64,000 nt of DNA from a bacterium (GCA_037131105.1 JBAXRQ010000001.1:765465-829464); one strand, 5' to 3'; shown: positions 10,783-30,330, counted from the stretch's first letter. Numbers and translations: made by a program. Notes: a model not told the origin generated them from the letters alone.

Positions 10783-10799
10783 GTGGACCCCACCGGATA
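10783..10799. repeat. 17-bp direct repeat ggtggaccccaccggat, left att-like copy of the tRNA-Ala 3' end
   Basis: Identical to 30256..30272 inside tRNA-Ala; embedded in a tRNA-3'-like fragment with a T-loop insertion. Confidence 0.55.
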
Positions 10800-10904
10800 A
10801 CAGGGCCACTATTTACATTCGGTAGCCCTGCCGCTTTCTGCCCGAGCGCAGAAGCGCGAGCGAACCTCCGGTTTCGTATCCGCGGGCGAAGCCCGACAAA
10901 GAAA

Positions 10905-10937
10905 AAGAACCATCTTCGGATGGTTCTTTTTCTTTGG
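10905..10937 (-). terminator. bidirectional intrinsic terminator (UUCG-loop hairpin flanked by A- and T-runs)
   Basis: gaaccatc-ttcg-gatggttc then ttttt; lies downstream of the minus-strand XRE gene. Confidence 0.55.
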
Positions 10938-11029
10938 TGGACTTGACGCACTTCTGTTCGAATCATTTCTCGCTTGGGTTGACGAGCTTGTGCGCGCTTA
11001 TAACCAGGACCTCGACTAATCAAGCGGTG

Positions 11030-11251
11030 TTAGCTTGAGATATTTAGCGTTCTTATTTTAAGTACCTTCATCATTATCTTGAGACGCTCTAACGAGGGGG
11101 TGACTTCACCACGCTCAATTCGAGCGTAATAGTTAACGTTAACATCGGCCGCTTCAGCGACCTCTGCTTGGGTGAGCTCAGCTTCCTCCCTGGCCTTCCG
11201 TAGCTTATCCCCGAGCTCCTTACGAGTTTTCTGATTGTTCTTGTTGGCCAT
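11030..11251 (-). CDS. XRE-family helix-turn-helix transcriptional regulator
   Basis: LTQAEVAEAADVNVNYYARIERGEVTPSLERL is a canonical Cro/C1 HTH. Confidence 0.7.
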   Translation of the reverse strand: MANKNNQKTRKELGDKLRKAREEAELTQAEVAEAADVNVNYYARIERGEVTPSLERLKIMMKVLKIRTLNISS

Positions 11252-11323
11252 ATGGCGATACTATACCAAAATTTCAATCAGATCGCTATCGCCCGAACCA
11301 TTTTTTATCGGTTAAGATAACGA

Positions 11324-27541: not shown

Positions 27542-27658
27542 AAAAAGAAGGGCTTCTTTGGGTCTAGCTTATCATATAAAAGTCATCAATAACATGAGTT
27601 TACCCAAGAAAATTACGGGGGGTATTGCATAAATTATACATAGTGGTATGATTTATAC

Positions 27659-28498
27659 ATGATTCAGCCATTCTTCTCAGACGACAACCTGATTCGCTTC
27701 ACCGAAGCGGACGAAAAGCACCAGATTGTAGAGGCTTTAAGCGTCAAGCGGTTTCGGGTGGCAGACACCGACATCAGCTACCGCCTCATCAACTACCTCG
27801 ACCAGGACGGACTGCTTGGCGACTCTCGGGAAGGCAAGGGCTGGCGCTCGTTCTCACTGAAGGAGCTCATTTACCTCTACCTCATCCTTGAGCTCAAGCG
27901 CTTCGGCTTCGCTCAGGTCAGCTTGCAGGAAGTCTGCGCCGCCGTCCTCACCAACCAAGTAAGCGGGAAGCCTGGCAAAACCTTCTTTGATATGGCCATC
28001 GGTCTCTGCTATGTCGGTGAGGAAATCCACATCATCGCCAAGCCGAGCGGCGACATGCTGTTTATGGTTCCTGGCTACTTCGGCCTTTTCCAGCAAGGCG
28101 GGCTCCTTTCTTCCGAAGGTGACAACTCTTACATCCATATTCTCCTTAACGACTTAACCAATAGGGCGCTAACCGCCTTACGGAAAAAGCCGGTGGATGT
28201 ACACAATTCCTTCTTCTCTCAGTACCTCGATTTAGTGGGAAAACCAGAGGAATCAGAGTCTAATAAAAAAGAGCAAAAAGTGTTGGATGCCCTACGGAAT
28301 AAAGATTACCTGAGCGTTGAAGTCAGGAAGAAAGACGGCGAGCTCCACACTATGAAGGTCGAGAAGCTGGAAGAATACCTGAGCAACCAAGAAGACATTA
28401 CCAACCTTATCAAGCAGAAAGACTACGCTGACATCCGGCTCGTTAAGCGGGATGGCAAGGTAGTCCATCTGGAAAGCAAAGACACCATCAAACTATAA
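27659..28498 (+). CDS. hypothetical protein
   Basis: 279-aa ORF, possible N-terminal DNA-binding region; upstream of the second recombinase. Confidence 0.45.
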   Translation: MIQPFFSDDNLIRFTEADEKHQIVEALSVKRFRVADTDISYRLINYLDQDGLLGDSREGKGWRSFSLKELIYLYLILELKRFGFAQVSLQEVCAAVLTNQVSGKPGKTFFDMAIGLCYVGEEIHIIAKPSGDMLFMVPGYFGLFQQGGLLSSEGDNSYIHILLNDLTNRALTALRKKPVDVHNSFFSQYLDLVGKPEESESNKKEQKVLDALRNKDYLSVEVRKKDGELHTMKVEKLEEYLSNQEDITNLIKQKDYADIRLVKRDGKVVHLESKDTIKL

Positions 28499-28741
28499 CC
28501 CGACAACGCTGAGCAGAGGAACCCTGCAGGCCACAGTAATTAACCACCTAATGCTTCAAGAGGTACTTGGGCGAAGGACACTGAAAGTGTTTTTCACCCA
28601 TGACCGATACCGAGCGCATAGAGCTCAAGATAGAGCAGAAGCTAAGGCCACTTATTGCGGACACTGCGGAGCGTATGAAGGTAGCAAGGGAAATCAATGC
28701 CCTAGCCAAAATCCTCATCAGCGCCTACCGGACACAAGCCC

Positions 28742-30319
28742 ATGATAAGCGCCAACCCGCCACAATCCGAACTAAAGCGAGCAATCGTCTACATCCGAGT
28801 CTCCACCAAGGAACAAGTTGACGAGGGAAACAGCCTGGCTACCCAGGAGCGGCTTTGTCGTGACTACGCCAAGAAACAGGGTATAACGGTCAAAGAGGAA
28901 GGTATCTTCAGAGAGGAGGGCGAAAGCGCCAAGACCGCCAACCGGACGGTGCTCAAGAAGATGATTACCTATGCCAGTCTCCATAAGAACGAGATCGACT
29001 GTCTGCTTATCTACCGGATTGACCGGCTAGCTCGGGAAACCAGGGACTACAGCCATCTGAAAGGCTTTTTCGGCTCACTTGGCATCAGGGTTATTTCAAT
29101 TTCCGAGAACTTTGAAGACGACCCTGTAGGCCGCTTTATCGAGAATACTCTGGCCGGCGTCGCCCAGCTTGATAATGAAATCAGGGCTGAGCGCAGCAAG
29201 AACGGCATGGTTGACGCTGTTCGGGAAGGTCGCTGGGTCTGGAAAGCCCCTCTGGGCTATATAAACGCTCGGGTACATGGCAAGAAGAACATTAAGCCTA
29301 ATCCAGCTGGCAATACGGTAACGCTCCTACGTGAAGCCTGGGAACTGGTGGATAGCGGCTTTTCTATCGAGGCCACCCGCCGCATAATGGAAAAGAAGGG
29401 CTTGGTAAGCGAACGAGGAAAAGCAGTCAGCAAGAGCCAGTTTCAAAAGCTTTTTCACCATCCCATTTACAAAGGGGTAATCGACAAGTTTGGCCTCACC
29501 ATTCTCAGTGACGCTATTGAACCCATCGTACCGCCAGAACTGTTTGATCGGGTGCACCTGAAGCTGACCGGCGCTTATCACTTCCCCGAGAAATACCTAA
29601 AGGCCAACCCTGAGTTTCCACTACGGGGTGTCATGTTCTGCAAATACGGCCACAGAATGACTGCTAGCGCCCCTAGAGGCAATGGCGGGCGGTATCCTAA
29701 GTACCACTGCCATTTGTGTCGAGGAGTAGGCACGAGCCACAATAAAACCACCGTAGAGACCCGCTTTAAGACATACATCAACTACATGAGCTACCCAGGA
29801 GAGCTCAAGGAGGGCTTAGTAGTGGCCATTATGGGAAACTGGGAGCAAGAACAGCAAGTAAACCGCAAGCAGATCGCCAAGCTCAAGAAGCGATTACTAG
29901 AGCTAGACGCTGAGGATAACGAAATAGGCCGCAAGAACATTGCCGGCGTCTTTAGCGATGAGCACGCCAAGAAGATGTTGGCGGCGAACAGCCTGGAGCG
30001 TACCAAGATAAACCTAGAGCTCAGTGGCTACGACTATTTAGATCAGGATTTAGAAGAAATGATTGAAGATGGCGCAAGCTCTTTGGAGGACATAAGCGCT
30101 TTGTGGGAAGGACTTGAGGACATCCACATCAAGCAACGGTTCCAAAAATGGCTATTTCCCCTTGGGGTGGTGTATGACGGAGAGAAATTTGGAACCAGCC
30201 AATTACCCCTTTGCATATCTATTAAAAAAGACCTTTCCAACGAAAAGTCTCTTTTGGTGGACCCCACCGGATTCGAACCGGTCGCCTCCTCGGTGCAAAC
30301 GAGGCGCTCTACCAAATGA
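28742..30319 (+). CDS. large serine recombinase; 3' end overlaps tRNA-Ala on the opposite strand
   Basis: VYIRVSTKEQ, ...RIDRLAR, recombinase and zinc-ribbon regions; the last ~20 codons are read through the tRNA. Confidence 0.8.
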   Translation: MISANPPQSELKRAIVYIRVSTKEQVDEGNSLATQERLCRDYAKKQGITVKEEGIFREEGESAKTANRTVLKKMITYASLHKNEIDCLLIYRIDRLARETRDYSHLKGFFGSLGIRVISISENFEDDPVGRFIENTLAGVAQLDNEIRAERSKNGMVDAVREGRWVWKAPLGYINARVHGKKNIKPNPAGNTVTLLREAWELVDSGFSIEATRRIMEKKGLVSERGKAVSKSQFQKLFHHPIYKGVIDKFGLTILSDAIEPIVPPELFDRVHLKLTGAYHFPEKYLKANPEFPLRGVMFCKYGHRMTASAPRGNGGRYPKYHCHLCRGVGTSHNKTTVETRFKTYINYMSYPGELKEGLVVAIMGNWEQEQQVNRKQIAKLKKRLLELDAEDNEIGRKNIAGVFSDEHAKKMLAANSLERTKINLELSGYDYLDQDLEEMIEDGASSLEDISALWEGLEDIHIKQRFQKWLFPLGVVYDGEKFGTSQLPLCISIKKDLSNEKSLLVDPTGFEPVASSVQTRRSTK

Positions 30320-30330
30320 GCTAGGGGCCC
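30255..30330 (-). tRNA. tRNA-Ala(TGC), CCA encoded
   Basis: Cloverleaf with G3:U70, anticodon loop TTTGCAC, T-arm GGTTCGAATCC. Confidence 0.85.

Follow-up and report, generated by a model that had tools for sequence, protein, structure and literature searches.

Two serine-recombinase elements probably stacked in tandem at one tRNA-Ala gene

We analyzed a 64,000-nucleotide (nt) stretch of bacterial DNA, here called the window, in which a block of foreign DNA ends at the 3′ end of an intact tRNA-Ala gene (Table 1). The block had been predicted to be a single integrative element of ~19.5 kb; we consider it probable that it instead comprises a pair of separate mobile elements stacked at a single tRNA-Ala gene, a distal element B with the recombinase rec2 and a tRNA-proximal element A with the recombinase rec1, next to a short outer insert X. 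The GC content is 0.545 and 0.554 in the flanks, 0.512 from 10943 to 22424 and 0.445 from 22425 to 30253 (55% for the host, 51% for element B and 44.5% for element A). These steps and the mapped junctions support the predicted integration of foreign DNA at the tRNA-Ala 3′ end. The GC shift expected at 10800 and 30254 was seen for both elements but not for 10799..10934, which is host-like (0.55).

Table 1. Features of the tRNA-Ala locus, in window coordinates
Feature	Position	Strand	Basis or remarks
Outer 17-nt copy of tRNA-Ala 3′ end (T-loop A59 to CC)	10782..10798	.	Exact repeat
Insert X, non-coding, strongly folding	10799..10934	.	136 nt; fold z = -5.6; GC 0.55, host-like
attL of B: tRNA-Ala 3′-terminal fragment TGGTGGAC	10935..10942	.	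P′ arm follows directly
Element B	10943-22416		~11.5 kb, 51% GC; XRE, AAA ATPase, DGR, DUF3768, partner ORF, rec2
Displaced rec2 C-terminal exon (…GGLDALLFESFLAWVDELVRAYNQDLD*)	10943..11019	+	Contiguous with rec2 only in excised form
XRE-type HTH regulator, distal end of B	11030..11251	-	Pfam HTH_3 9.8e-15
AAA_5 (MoxR-like) ATPase, 668 aa	11324..13330	-	Pfam AAA_5 8.2e-14
DGR target protein 1, C-terminal VR1 at 13427-13547	13417..14487	-	TR/VR comparison
714-aa protein, unknown family	14484..16628	-	No Pfam, PADLOC or PHROGs match
DGR reverse transcriptase	16646..17628	-	RVT_1 on both halves
bAvd accessory protein of DGR	17558..17950	+	Pfam bAvd 1.9e-11
DGR template repeat (TR)	17959..18079	-	Repeat family; adenine-specific differences from both VRs
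DGR target protein 2, paralogue of target 1, VR2 at 18408-18528	18398..19447	-	TR/VR comparison
DUF3768 protein, B cargo	19950..20213	+	Pfam DUF3768 2.1e-12
Small partner ORF, 121 aa, directly upstream of rec2	20521..20886	+	Conserved position
rec2, large serine recombinase of B, integrated form	20888..22468	+	Resolvase (PF00239) 8.3e-34; Recombinase (PF07508) 1.5e-10, above curated cut-off
B/A junction (right end of B / attL of A): TGGTGGAC	22417..22424	.	tRNA-Ala 3′-terminal fragment
Element A	22425-30254		~7.8 kb, 44.5% GC; 188-aa protein, Cas4-like, helicase-nuclease, 279-aa partner, rec1
Displaced rec1 C-terminal exon (…DRHFSWNQIVQELVELSRILKGAQLGTA*)	22425..22511	+	Rebuilt ORF open 31 codons past tRNA end
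188-aa protein, A cargo	22536..23102	-	No family match
PD-(D/E)XK, Cas4-like nuclease	23109..24008	-	PDDEXK_1 2.1e-21; PADLOC Cas4 1.3e-9
SF1 helicase + MTES_1575 restriction-endonuclease-like domain, 1172 aa	24023..27541	-	AAA_11, AAA_12, MTES_1575
279-aa partner of rec1-type recombinases	27659..28498	+	Weak MerR/excisionase-like HTH, MerR_1 E = 0.004
rec1, large serine recombinase of A, integrated form, 525 aa	28742..30319	+	Resolvase (PF00239) 2e-30; Recombinase (PF07508) 3.3e-8, above curated cut-off
attR of A: TGGTGGAC inside functional tRNA	30255..30262	.	Identical to 10935 and 22417 copies
Intact tRNA-Ala(UGC), target gene	30255..30330	-	ARAGORN; Rfam tRNA 64.1 bits

The distal end of element B carries, as predicted, an XRE gene beside a strong terminator, and homologues of 71-72 amino acids (aa) occupy the same position in three rec2-type relatives (L097, L098 and L101). 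The predicted DGR was also found, with a reverse transcriptase, bAvd, the TR and two VRs, which occupy the last ~43 codons of two paralogous genes and differ from the TR mainly at TR adenines (22/26 mismatches for VR1 and 23/25 for VR2). A frameshift splits the reverse transcriptase into ORFs 17098-17628 and 16646-17101, and its homologue in L021 is a single frame. The DUF3768-like gene was borne out by Pfam. Of the proposed MoxR/vWA pair, only the AAA_5 ATPase was confirmed; the vWA assignment was not, the 714-aa protein having no Pfam match. ORFs 42-49% identical to the 121-aa partner stand at the same position in L097, L098 and L101, which makes the protein a candidate for an accessory or directionality role. 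The Replic_Relax and TraG-like proteins of L098 and L101 had no match in the window.

Element A carries the anticipated Cas4-like nuclease and helicase-nuclease, the latter with its SF1 helicase and restriction-endonuclease domains on one 1172-aa protein that matches PADLOC PDC-S37 (1.6e-78), Hhe (7.8e-36) and MkoA/C, a defence-type cargo. In 10 loci, a homologue of the 279-aa partner directly precedes the recombinase gene (33% identity to that of L006), and this protein may be a regulator or directionality factor. Among PHROGs matches in the island (integrase, exonuclease, helicase and ATPase), we found no convincing virion structural, packaging or lysis gene; one marginal terminase large-subunit match (E = 5.6e-6) fell on the helicase P-loop region and probably reflects shared NTPase similarity. 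Relaxase, coupling protein and type IV secretion genes were not found in the island, nor was an extra tRNA, and Pfam gave no Phage_integrase match there, both integrases being of the serine type.

The R-V-S-T motif of the resolvase domain is invariant or nearly so in the family alignments of both recombinases. A putative zinc ribbon in rec2 (PF13408) scored 24.0 bits, just below the 25.3-bit cut-off, and rec1 has no zinc-ribbon Pfam match, with a visible Cys/His cluster (CKYGH…CHLC). The rec1 gene, thought to abut the tRNA, does adjoin it but in fact overlaps it antisense by 65 nt, its last ~21 codons being antisense tRNA-Ala. Both clades are large, belong mostly to CPR/Patescibacteria and have genes running antisense into tRNAs. 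Of 73 genome loci of the rec1 clade, 41 have an ORF whose 3′ end overlaps an antisense tRNA (Glu, Ala, Phe, Val, Lys, Tyr, Ile, Leu, Arg and Met), and tRNA-antisense peptides such as LVxPxG(F/I/L/V)EP form the C terminus of ~100 of 120 database homologues. More than 100 rec2 homologues (58-65% identity) have tRNA-antisense tails, and the recombinase ORF overlaps tRNA-Gly, tRNA-Leu and tRNA-Pro in L097, L098 and L101, respectively; 2.9 million viral contigs held only one rec2-type locus. These clade-wide antisense 3′ ends and the conserved junctions support the predicted role of both enzymes as integrases.

Family comparison mapped the junctions to 10935-10942, 22417-22424 and 30255-30262, and the tRNA-end fragment, present once at each of them, sets the limits of two elements, a tandem accretion at one target. 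The P′ arm that follows the outermost copy is conserved in L101, L098 and L097, whose attL arms align to window positions 10935-11020 and code for the conserved tail; this copy appears to have been displaced upon integration of B. The middle copy carries a rec1-type attL signature (anchored tRNA end + N15 + TGGAACC) and falls at the family-conserved position of the rec2 tail. The rec2 gene crosses this junction, so its last 15 codons now read into element A. The innermost copy was supplied by the P arm of element A. The layout of rec2-type elements, with the XRE gene at the far end and the small ORF and recombinase at the tRNA end, is matched by 10943-22468, and their direct repeats are only 6-8 nt long. 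Judged from repeat lengths only, the crossover would fall in the 3′-terminal 6-9 nt of the tRNA (TGGTGGAC in this locus); the exact crossover dinucleotide is one that we infer.

For rec1-type loci, we defined an anchored far-junction site as the tRNA 3′-end 5-mer followed by N14-20 and TGGAACC, with a chance expectation of ~0.01 per locus that is rough arithmetic and not a shuffle control. Of 39 loci, 19 have such a site, at a distance of 2.8-10.3 kb upstream of the recombinase; in the window, it lies at 22417, 7,838 bp away from the tRNA end. With the P arm joined to the far site, the ORF was open for 27-68 codons in 19/19 loci, and the rebuilt tails share the peptide (S/F)WNQhhxELxxLxxIL, present as WNQhhxELxxLxxIL in the window tail. 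The WN part of this peptide arises by construction because the search motif TGGAACC also encodes Trp-Asn; the openness of the ORF and the downstream motif are independent of that construction. A natural attP form, P0017, lies on contig L105, where there is no tRNA and the P and P′ arms are contiguous, and its tail is matched by the tail rebuilt for window rec1; likewise, P0116 comes close to the tail reconstructed at L042. Dyad symmetry is present in the rebuilt rec1 attP (TTCCAACGAAAAGTCT / AGACATTTTTCGTGGAA; 10/2000 shuffles) and was absent when the P arm was joined to 10799 or 10943. No dyad symmetry was detected in the rebuilt rec2 attP, and the rebuilt rec2 tail G.LD.L.FEhLLAWhD.L is conserved across four rec2-type elements. 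Since a conserved C-terminal peptide of 25-68 codons is restored when the tRNA-side and far ends are joined, attP would lie inside the integrase gene in both clades, and hundreds of relatives in ultra-small (CPR) bacteria appear to share this split-recombinase-gene design.

The 17-bp direct repeat proposed as the boundary of the block is real. The 17-mer GGTGGACCCCACCGGAT occurs in exactly two copies in the same orientation, at 30256-30272 and 10782-10798, the latter one position to the left of the predicted 10783-10799. The window holds no third copy with up to two mismatches, and chance recurrence is excluded (expectation 0.02; two matches in 0/100 shuffles). The outer copy sits 136 nt outside the attL of element B, the outermost junction, and by its position would not be a recombination scar of either serine recombinase; it belongs to the separate, short, non-coding insert X. 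A bidirectional terminator hairpin with 26-nt arms (10889-10944) ends the insert and abuts the inner tRNA-end fragment, and a 22-nt module of X (10838-10859) is repeated at 33401-33422. The window has a related structure after tRNA-Ile too, at a place without a recombinase, and the X-like layout was found at 7-8 other loci.

We propose that site-specific insertions, one after another, at the very 3′ terminus of a single tRNA-Ala gene built up the array. Read towards the tRNA, it would comprise an old 136-nt insert closed by the 17-mer, element B and element A; B would have inserted first, and A would then have entered the regenerated tRNA, pushing B outward, an order that we infer. In the free circle, attP would sit inside the 3′ end of the element's own large-serine-recombinase gene, and the recombinase would pair it with the tRNA end. 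Strands would be exchanged in the terminal 6-9 nt of the tRNA gene (TGGTG, the CCA/discriminator end), a step that would rebuild the tRNA and cut the recombinase gene ~30 codons from its end. The last 28-31 codons would thereby be stranded at the far end of the element, and the integrated gene copy would instead draw its final ~15-22 codons from antisense tRNA or the neighbouring element.

Both elements may still be active: rec1 and rec2 each have an intact ORF and an intact displaced C-terminal exon, all of them open and conserved, and the very foreign GC content of element A (0.445) suggests a recent arrival. These observations argue against a reading that we take seriously while leaning away from it, namely that the same architecture is now a fixed fossil in which neither element is mobile and the host simply retains the DGR and helicase-nuclease cargo. 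Such a state would fit the frameshifted reverse transcriptase and the lack in B of the Replic_Relax and TraG-like genes of its relatives. Moreover, B probably could not excise unless A left first, because its right junction faces A and not the tRNA body. The B-A junction protein is identical in NCBI, JGI, Logan and ENA records, with no alternative state found, although few samples carry the organism. Among contigs carrying the flanking proteins, there was no empty tRNA-Ala site, excised circle or B-only array, and all junctions were identical; the uninterrupted locus expected in relatives was not found either, their gene order being too shuffled to yield an empty site. Exact searches for the attP-form and B-only proteins that the model predicts gave no match, and pattern scans of metagenome and viral contigs were likewise negative.

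A nested arrangement, in which element A is bounded by the 17-mers and includes insert X, and B later entered a tRNA-end-like site in the left end of A, seems improbable to us. The outer T-loop repeat with a short insert is enriched beside rec1-type elements (7-8/19 versus ~3/60 other tRNAs), which leaves room for this model, and in L103, L006, L042, L075, L076 and L032 the outer repeat, X-like insert, inner fragment and rec1-type exon are contiguous, as they would be in the window minus B. However, the inner fragment always matches the specific target tRNA, and the rebuilt ORF and the natural attP form join the P arm to the exon directly, without X. Several rec1-type loci have no outer repeat (e.g., L081, L004, L008, L030 and L078), the GC content of X is host-like, X-like structures occur at tRNAs without a recombinase, and B would have picked a degenerate pseudo-site with the true tRNA site 7.8 kb away.

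A single 19.5-kb element bounded by the 17-bp repeats and served by two cooperating recombinases is hardly credible: the exact repeat does flank the whole block, and the XRE gene and terminator lie near the end opposite a recombinase, but the attL signatures and displaced exons lie at 10935 and 22417, not 10798; a stop codon directly follows the 17-mer in the rec1 frame (GGA TAA), and therefore a circle closed there would be without the conserved tail; the recombinases are only 31% identical, and each clade is normally alone at the tRNA-proximal end of its own element; and a comparable T-loop repeat and short insert occur at tRNA-Ile without any element. Because the short junctions divide the block into two independent elements, both with a tRNA-proximal recombinase of their own, rec1 and rec2 would not be partners but each the integrase of its own stacked element.

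Under the two-element reading, the tail swap may have a regulatory effect. We consider it rather unlikely, but worth stating, that the C-terminal swap is a built-in switch and, jointly with this, that X-type T-loop-anchored inserts are an undescribed class of miniature tRNA-linked elements or landing pads. Only the circle would then encode the full-length recombinase with its conserved amphipathic tail, and the integrated gene would make a tail-swapped enzyme of altered activity or directionality. Recombinase expression would also be dampened by tRNA read-through, which would end at a terminator hairpin lying within the C-terminal codons of the recombinase gene itself. If true, the near-universal CCA/T-arm end of tRNA genes would be the specialised target of two very large recombinase clades.

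The phage large serine integrases TP901-1, phiMR11, A118, Bxb1 and phiC31 share the Resolvase catalytic and Recombinase domains with the window enzymes, at less than 30% identity; the best solved-structure match was the TP901-1 integrase catalytic domain (3e-9). Imperfect dyad symmetry of attP is common to them and the rebuilt rec1 site, but they target protein-coding or intergenic sites, and we know of no report of an attP inside the own gene of any of the five. In the Myxococcus phage Mx8 (intP/intX) and the Sulfolobus virus SSV1 (int), attP does lie inside the integrase coding sequence, and integration into a tRNA gene alters or removes the C-terminal end of the integrase. These are tyrosine recombinases, whereas the window enzymes are large serine recombinases in which only the last ~30 codons are exchanged. 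As in the tRNA islands and prophages of tyrosine integrases, the target is a tRNA 3′ end, the tRNA is regenerated, a displaced 3′ fragment forms a direct repeat, the integrase lies beside the tRNA and accretion is in tandem; the integrase family differs and the junction repeats are much shorter. Small serine recombinases of the phiRSM type, described by Askora and colleagues in 2011, reportedly integrate at tRNA-Ser with its 3′ end as attB. They are resolvase-like enzymes of filamentous phage without the large C-terminal recombinase and zinc-ribbon domains.

A 2020 survey, which called t(m)RNA use by serine integrases previously unreported, found it in 14 of 297 serine integrases, compared with 44.5% of tyrosine integrases (PMC7192596). 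The nearest precedent appears to be the ssrA islands of Dehalococcoides, in which DsiB without exception reaches with its 3′ end across the att site and antisense into the target RNA gene, and for which McMurdie et al. (2011) raised the possibility that only the circular form encodes a complete integrase (PMC3146451). In architecture, these islands resemble the window in the large serine recombinase at the target-proximal end, the antisense integrase 3′ end overlapping the att site, the tandem stacking with direct repeats of the RNA gene 3′ end, and accessory cargo, with own transfer genes noted in neither. The DsiB islands insert in the T-loop of ssrA with a ~20-bp repeat, whereas the window elements use tRNA-Ala with a 6-9-nt repeat at the CCA/discriminator end; only the outer 17-mer, tied to neither recombinase, starts in the T-loop. 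The small serine recombinase DsiA, ParB, Mom and the embedded tRNA-like gene of the DsiB islands have no counterpart among the Pfam matches of the block or the tRNAs found, and the 121-aa and 279-aa partner ORFs differ from DsiA. Finally, rec1- and rec2-type elements reside in CPR/Patescibacteria and other hosts, and the DsiB islands in Dehalococcoides.

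The 19.5-kb block downstream of tRNA-Ala(UGC) had been read as a single integrative element bounded by 17-bp direct repeats. The tRNA gene is intact, and the 17-mer GGTGGACCCCACCGGAT occurs exactly twice in the window, in direct orientation, the left copy starting one base away from its predicted coordinate; no third copy was found in the window with up to two mismatches allowed (chance expectation of 0.02). Two large serine recombinase genes, rec2 and rec1, and an XRE gene adjoining a strong terminator hairpin were also located as predicted. However, the block is not one element bounded by the 17-mers, as the junctions of rec1 and rec2 map to 22417 and 10935 instead. 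The 17-mer starts in the T-loop (A59), and its outer copy lies 136 nt outside attL of the outer element. Thus, the original prediction was correct in what it observed and right in part in how it interpreted this. The coordinates point to a tandem array of two serine-recombinase islands as the probable nature of the block: element A, proximal to the tRNA and carrying rec1, and element B, the outer one carrying rec2, with a 136-nt insert (X) beyond B.

Coordinates of the array and its surroundings (window positions)
Feature	Positions	Remark
Outer 17-mer	10782-10798	GGTGGACCCCACCGGAT
Insert X	10799-10934	
Terminator hairpin	10889-10944	
attL of B	10935-10942	TGGTGGAC
Element B	10943-22416	
rec2 displaced exon	10943-11019	
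XRE gene	11030-11251	
DGR template repeat	17959-18079	
rec2	20888-22468	
B/A junction	22417-22424	TGGTGGAC
Element A	22425-30254	
rec1 displaced codons	22425-22511	
rec1	28742-30319	
tRNA-Ala(UGC)	30255-30330	minus strand
attR of A, inside tRNA	30255-30262	
Inner 17-mer	30256-30272	
tRNA-Ile	33730-33806	minus strand
16S rRNA gene	35874-37650	

The rec1 gene overlaps tRNA-Ala in antisense by 65 nt, and a homology search yielded more than 1,200 relatives. Nearly all of the best 120 end in peptides like LVIPRGIEPLLPG or LVDPTGFEPVTSSLQMRRSTN, and a simple pattern recognized about 100 of these 120 tails as the antisense translation of a tRNA acceptor and T-arm in a fixed frame. Among one-genome-per-species contigs, the clade was found mainly in Saccharibacteria and other CPR/Patescibacteria, and also in Bacteroidota and others. 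The end of the ORF overlapped an antisense tRNA gene (Glu, Ala, Phe, Val, Lys, Tyr, Ile, Leu, Arg, or Met) in 41 of the 73 loci with a complete ORF. Members without a nearby tRNA, mostly from Bacteroidota (L035, L041, L047, L051-L056, L058, L060-L063, L065, L068-L070, and L074), have ORFs running 80 to 290 nt beyond the aligned region and may use other targets or represent another state.

Loci related to rec1 have a further copy of the tRNA 3′ end upstream of the recombinase. What is conserved at this far junction is not the longest repeat but a short tRNA-end fragment with TGGAACC(A) 21 to 24 nt from the tRNA end. A search anchored on a tRNA-end 5-mer, N14-20, and TGGAACC detected such a site 2.8 to 10.3 kb upstream of the recombinase in 19 of 39 rec1-type loci, where roughly 0.01 per locus would be expected by chance (an arithmetic estimate without a shuffle control), and placed the site of the window at 22417. 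Joining the P arm (element sequence before the tRNA end) to the P′ arm (sequence after the far fragment) rebuilt the recombinase ORF in all 19 loci, leaving it open for 27 to 68 further codons, and the rebuilt tails share the amphipathic peptide (S/F)WNQhhxELxxLxxIL; in the window, the rebuilt rec1 ends with …SLLVDDRHFSWNQIVQELVELSRILKGAQLGTA before the stop. A natural uninterrupted tail was found in the homologue P0017, ending in …SLLVNYRNLNWNQLLSELKDLKSILQPAI. It is encoded on L105 (Logan SRR31257720; 4,687 bp), where the P arm, TGGTGAAC, and the TGGAACC exon follow one another contiguously around positions 2130 to 2260; this contig contains no tRNA and its ends do not overlap. Similarly, the tail of another homologue, P0116, is nearly identical to that rebuilt for locus L042. 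In a gapped alignment, the rebuilt rec1 attP of the window exhibited dyad symmetry, TTCCAACGAAAAGTCT … AGACATTTTTCGTGGAA, centered at about 30257-30258 and reached in 10 of 2,000 shuffles, and this symmetry was absent from joins of rec1 to 10799 or 10943. The gapped alignment favored the rec1 join alone, and ungapped scans gave marginal signals only. Collectively, the far-junction site, the rebuilt ORFs, the natural tails, and the attP symmetry indicate that the rec1-type attP lies inside the integrase gene and that integration would remove its last approximately 30 codons, which are left at the far end of the element as a displaced exon. In the window, TGGAACC of the P′ arm starts 23 nt from the tRNA end, compared with 18 nt for the TCGAACC of the tRNA itself. 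According to Rutherford and Van Duyne, the attP half-sites of large serine integrases reportedly carry the zinc-ribbon motif about 5 bp farther out than those of attB; the fit is suggestive only, since the same bases also encode Trp-Asn.

The 3′ end of rec1-type genes (30225-30256 in the window and the proximal arms of L006, L042, L032, and L016) encodes the conserved C-terminal peptide …IKKDLSxEKSLLV by an A-run, a hairpin, and a T-run. Read on the opposite strand, these resemble a terminator immediately after the tRNA, so the same bases may serve both the protein and tRNA termination. In 10 loci, rec1-type recombinases are found together with a 279-amino-acid ORF containing a weak MerR/excisionase-like HTH.

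The rec2 protein shares only 31% identity with rec1 and belongs to a second, very abundant clade (best 120 relatives at 58 to 65% identity) whose tails are also tRNA antisense, albeit in another frame (…FGSADGIRTRGL…, …IGAGQGTLTPG…). Three rec2-type genes on long contigs overlap tRNA-Gly, tRNA-Leu, and tRNA-Pro, and the common layout comprises XRE at the far end, cargo, often Replic_Relax, a small conserved ORF, and the recombinase by the tRNA. At the far junctions, only 6 to 8 nt of the tRNA end are present (TGGTGC, TGGTCG), directly followed by a conserved arm that aligns with window positions 10935-11020 and, in the recombinase frame, encodes a conserved tail: FGGLDALLFESFLAWVDELVRAYNQDLD and a stop in the window, FGALEGLLFEHLLAWLDHLVKVF… in L098, YGRPDASCFEHLLSWIDQIM… in L101, and FGALDRLSFEHLLSWLSSL… in L097. 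The distance from the far fragment to the XRE stop codon is also similar, 88 nt in the window and 84 nt in L101. The latter contig, from Patescibacteria, carries two different serine-recombinase elements less than 10 kb apart (1-2300 and 10001-11603), one with a rec1-type gene extending 41 nt into tRNA-Glu and the other with a rec2-type gene extending 58 nt into tRNA-Pro; tRNA-Lys and tRNA-Gly are located in between.

The 9- and 10-mer matches at 22416 and 10933 cannot be taken as significant by count (about 1.4 and 0.3 expected by chance across the island); their significance rests on their position and the conserved flanking arms. Each incoming element would enter the functional tRNA and displace older ones outward, and we infer the insertion order X, B, A on this ground. 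The GC content of B (0.512) and A (0.445) is shifted relative to the flanks (0.545 and 0.554), as expected for a foreign block, but that of X, just inside the outer 17-mer, is 0.552. This host-like GC argues against an alternative model, in which A would consist of X plus 22425-30254 and B would have inserted within it. An outer repeat of 11 to 21 nt followed by 80 to 200 nt and a hairpin indeed precedes the rec1-type junction in 7 to 8 of 19 loci (L103, L006, L042, L075, L076, and L032; L016 at 470 nt), and such enrichment of X-like structures beside rec1-type elements would fit nesting. However, the P arm runs straight into the exon, with no X between them, in the natural attP form and in every rebuilt ORF, and several rec1 family members have no outer repeat; together with the GC content of X, this makes the nested model improbable. 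Insertion of A before B would have left rec2, not rec1, beside the tRNA, and neither the rec2 end nor X appears to hold a decayed remnant of tRNA-Ala, as Rfam gave no tRNA-like match at 22300-22600 or 10700-11100 at E values up to 10.

Insert X is noncoding and strongly folding (z = −5.6), has no similarity to the interior of A or B, and closes with a terminator hairpin directly beside the inner tRNA fragment; L097 and L098 have comparable hairpins adjoining the tRNA fragment at their attL junctions. Structures resembling X are also present at tRNAs lacking a recombinase, namely, tRNA-Arg in L091 and tRNA-Ile in the window. Downstream of the latter, at 33487-33670, lie two tandem 99-nt units (98% identical), in each of which a 40-nt insert splits the 3′ half of tRNA-Ile after T-loop G57; they are followed by a degenerate third copy (33321-33395) and a terminator, and no recombinase gene was found near this structure (33321-33729). 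X reads alike, as ACCGGAGGTTCG, 58 nt, and the 17-mer, and shares with the tRNA-Ile region the 22-nt module CTGCCCGAGCGCAGRAGCGCGA (10838-10859 and 33401-33422, the only two copies in the window). Logan contig L001 ends at 10859 because of this repeat, and its break is thus an artefact, not a sign of population variation. X-like structures could be relics of T-loop-crossing elements, as with DsiB in ssrA, or small nonautonomous elements.

Neither element contains virion or conjugation genes, so A and B are best regarded as integrative islands that may be mobilizable. The block had no plasmid match, and known phage integrases are all less than 30% identical to its recombinases. Most of the predicted cargo was recovered (AAA_5 ATPase, DUF3768, Cas4-like PD-(D/E)XK nuclease, and SF1 helicase with a restriction-endonuclease-like domain), but the presumed vWA gene encodes a 714-amino-acid protein without a family hit. 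Element A carries the Cas4-like nuclease and a helicase-nuclease, the latter matching the PADLOC candidate defense family PDC-S37 (1.6e-78) as well as Hhe and Mokosh helicases. At 7.8 kb, A is typical of the rec1 clade; its closest relative with context (L103; 65% identity) is a 5.5-kb element at tRNA-Glu with a PvuII-like restriction-modification system and C-protein (6481-8345). Cargo differs widely within both clades (e.g., L098 and L103), and the rec2-type element of L098 (1114-9426) is ICE-like, with a TraG/TrwB-like ATPase, an ABC transporter, and Replic_Relax. The DGR in the cargo was corroborated by bAvd, a template repeat, and two variable repeats, one at the 3′ end of each of two paralogues, with 22 of 26 and 23 of 25 differences at template adenines. 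Its reverse transcriptase is split by a frameshift at 17098-17101 into ORFs of 176 and 151 amino acids overlapping by 4 nt; in L021, the homologous gene has a single uninterrupted frame, and the split may reflect either genuine inactivation or faulty assembly.

In A and B alike, the recombinase ORF and the displaced exon are intact, and any present-day mobility is putative. Contig, protein, and pattern searches revealed no empty site, excised circle, or B-only array. A degenerate att pattern (attL/attR/attB/attP) based on the 17-mer had no matches in metagenome and viral contigs, the exact rebuilt-attP patterns of A and B had none in viral contigs, and exact look-ups of the predicted attP-form rec1 (535 amino acids), attP-form rec2 (537 amino acids), and B-only rec2 proteins found none in the collection. 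The NCBI, JGI, Logan, and ENA records, among them a 949-kb MAG contig, all have the same protein across the B-A junction. All contigs with the exact flanking His_Phos or TMEM175-like protein show island-side junctions, and a look-up of PrsW with its metagenome scan was uninformative. The closest flank homologues are from Parcubacteria/Paceibacterota, and no orthologous empty site was obtainable because His_Phos homologues (71 to 76% identity) sit in unrelated neighborhoods. One of these (L093, 1528-5854; 76% identity) is preceded by a 669-amino-acid reverse transcriptase and a 768-amino-acid helicase/Peptidase_S24 protein, a different retroelement or defense insert at the equivalent position.

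Large serine recombinases are valued in genome engineering and, by textbook accounts, do not use tRNA genes; a gene interrupted by its own attP is known for integrases of the tyrosine type (Mx8 intP/intX and SSV1). A full-text literature search found no report on serine integrases with tRNA targets in CPR, and a 2020 survey of 2,168 genomes listed only 14 candidate cases of t(m)RNA use among 297 serine integrases and requested proof (PMC7192596). The closest precedent is the ssrA genomic islands of Dehalococcoides, which stack in tandem; in the study describing them, the dsiB gene was suspected to be whole in the circular form alone (PMC3146451). The array represents such tRNA/tmRNA-targeting islands of the DsiB type in altered form: the target is a tRNA rather than tmRNA, the junctions lie at the CCA end rather than in the T-loop, the DsiA partner is absent, and the hosts differ. 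Judged from sequence comparison, two large clades numbering hundreds of members, most of them from CPR/Patescibacteria and the rest from Bacteroidota and other groups, have recombinases that appear to systematically target the last few bases of tRNA genes and, on insertion, split their own gene. The wider value of the tandem array lies in exposing this clade-level rule. It defines element boundaries in these genomes (a tRNA-end fragment followed by a conserved C-terminal exon), accounts for the odd tRNA-antisense peptides at the ends of integrase gene calls, and cautions that the longest repeat at a tRNA need not be the working att site. The array also shows how DGRs and defense genes travel in tiny genomes. 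CPR bacteria are hard to manipulate genetically, and the natural integrases identified here are possible tools for them.

As for the surroundings, the 16S rRNA gene carries insertions, since it spans 1,777 nt versus a 1,533-position model, and the rRNA operon is unlinked, as no 23S gene is present in the window. The 16S gene is followed by scattered tRNAs (30255-35676; Met, Pro, an odd one, Asp, Ile, and Ala) interleaved with protein genes, the tRNA at 35434-35505 having an odd 2-nt anticodon call.
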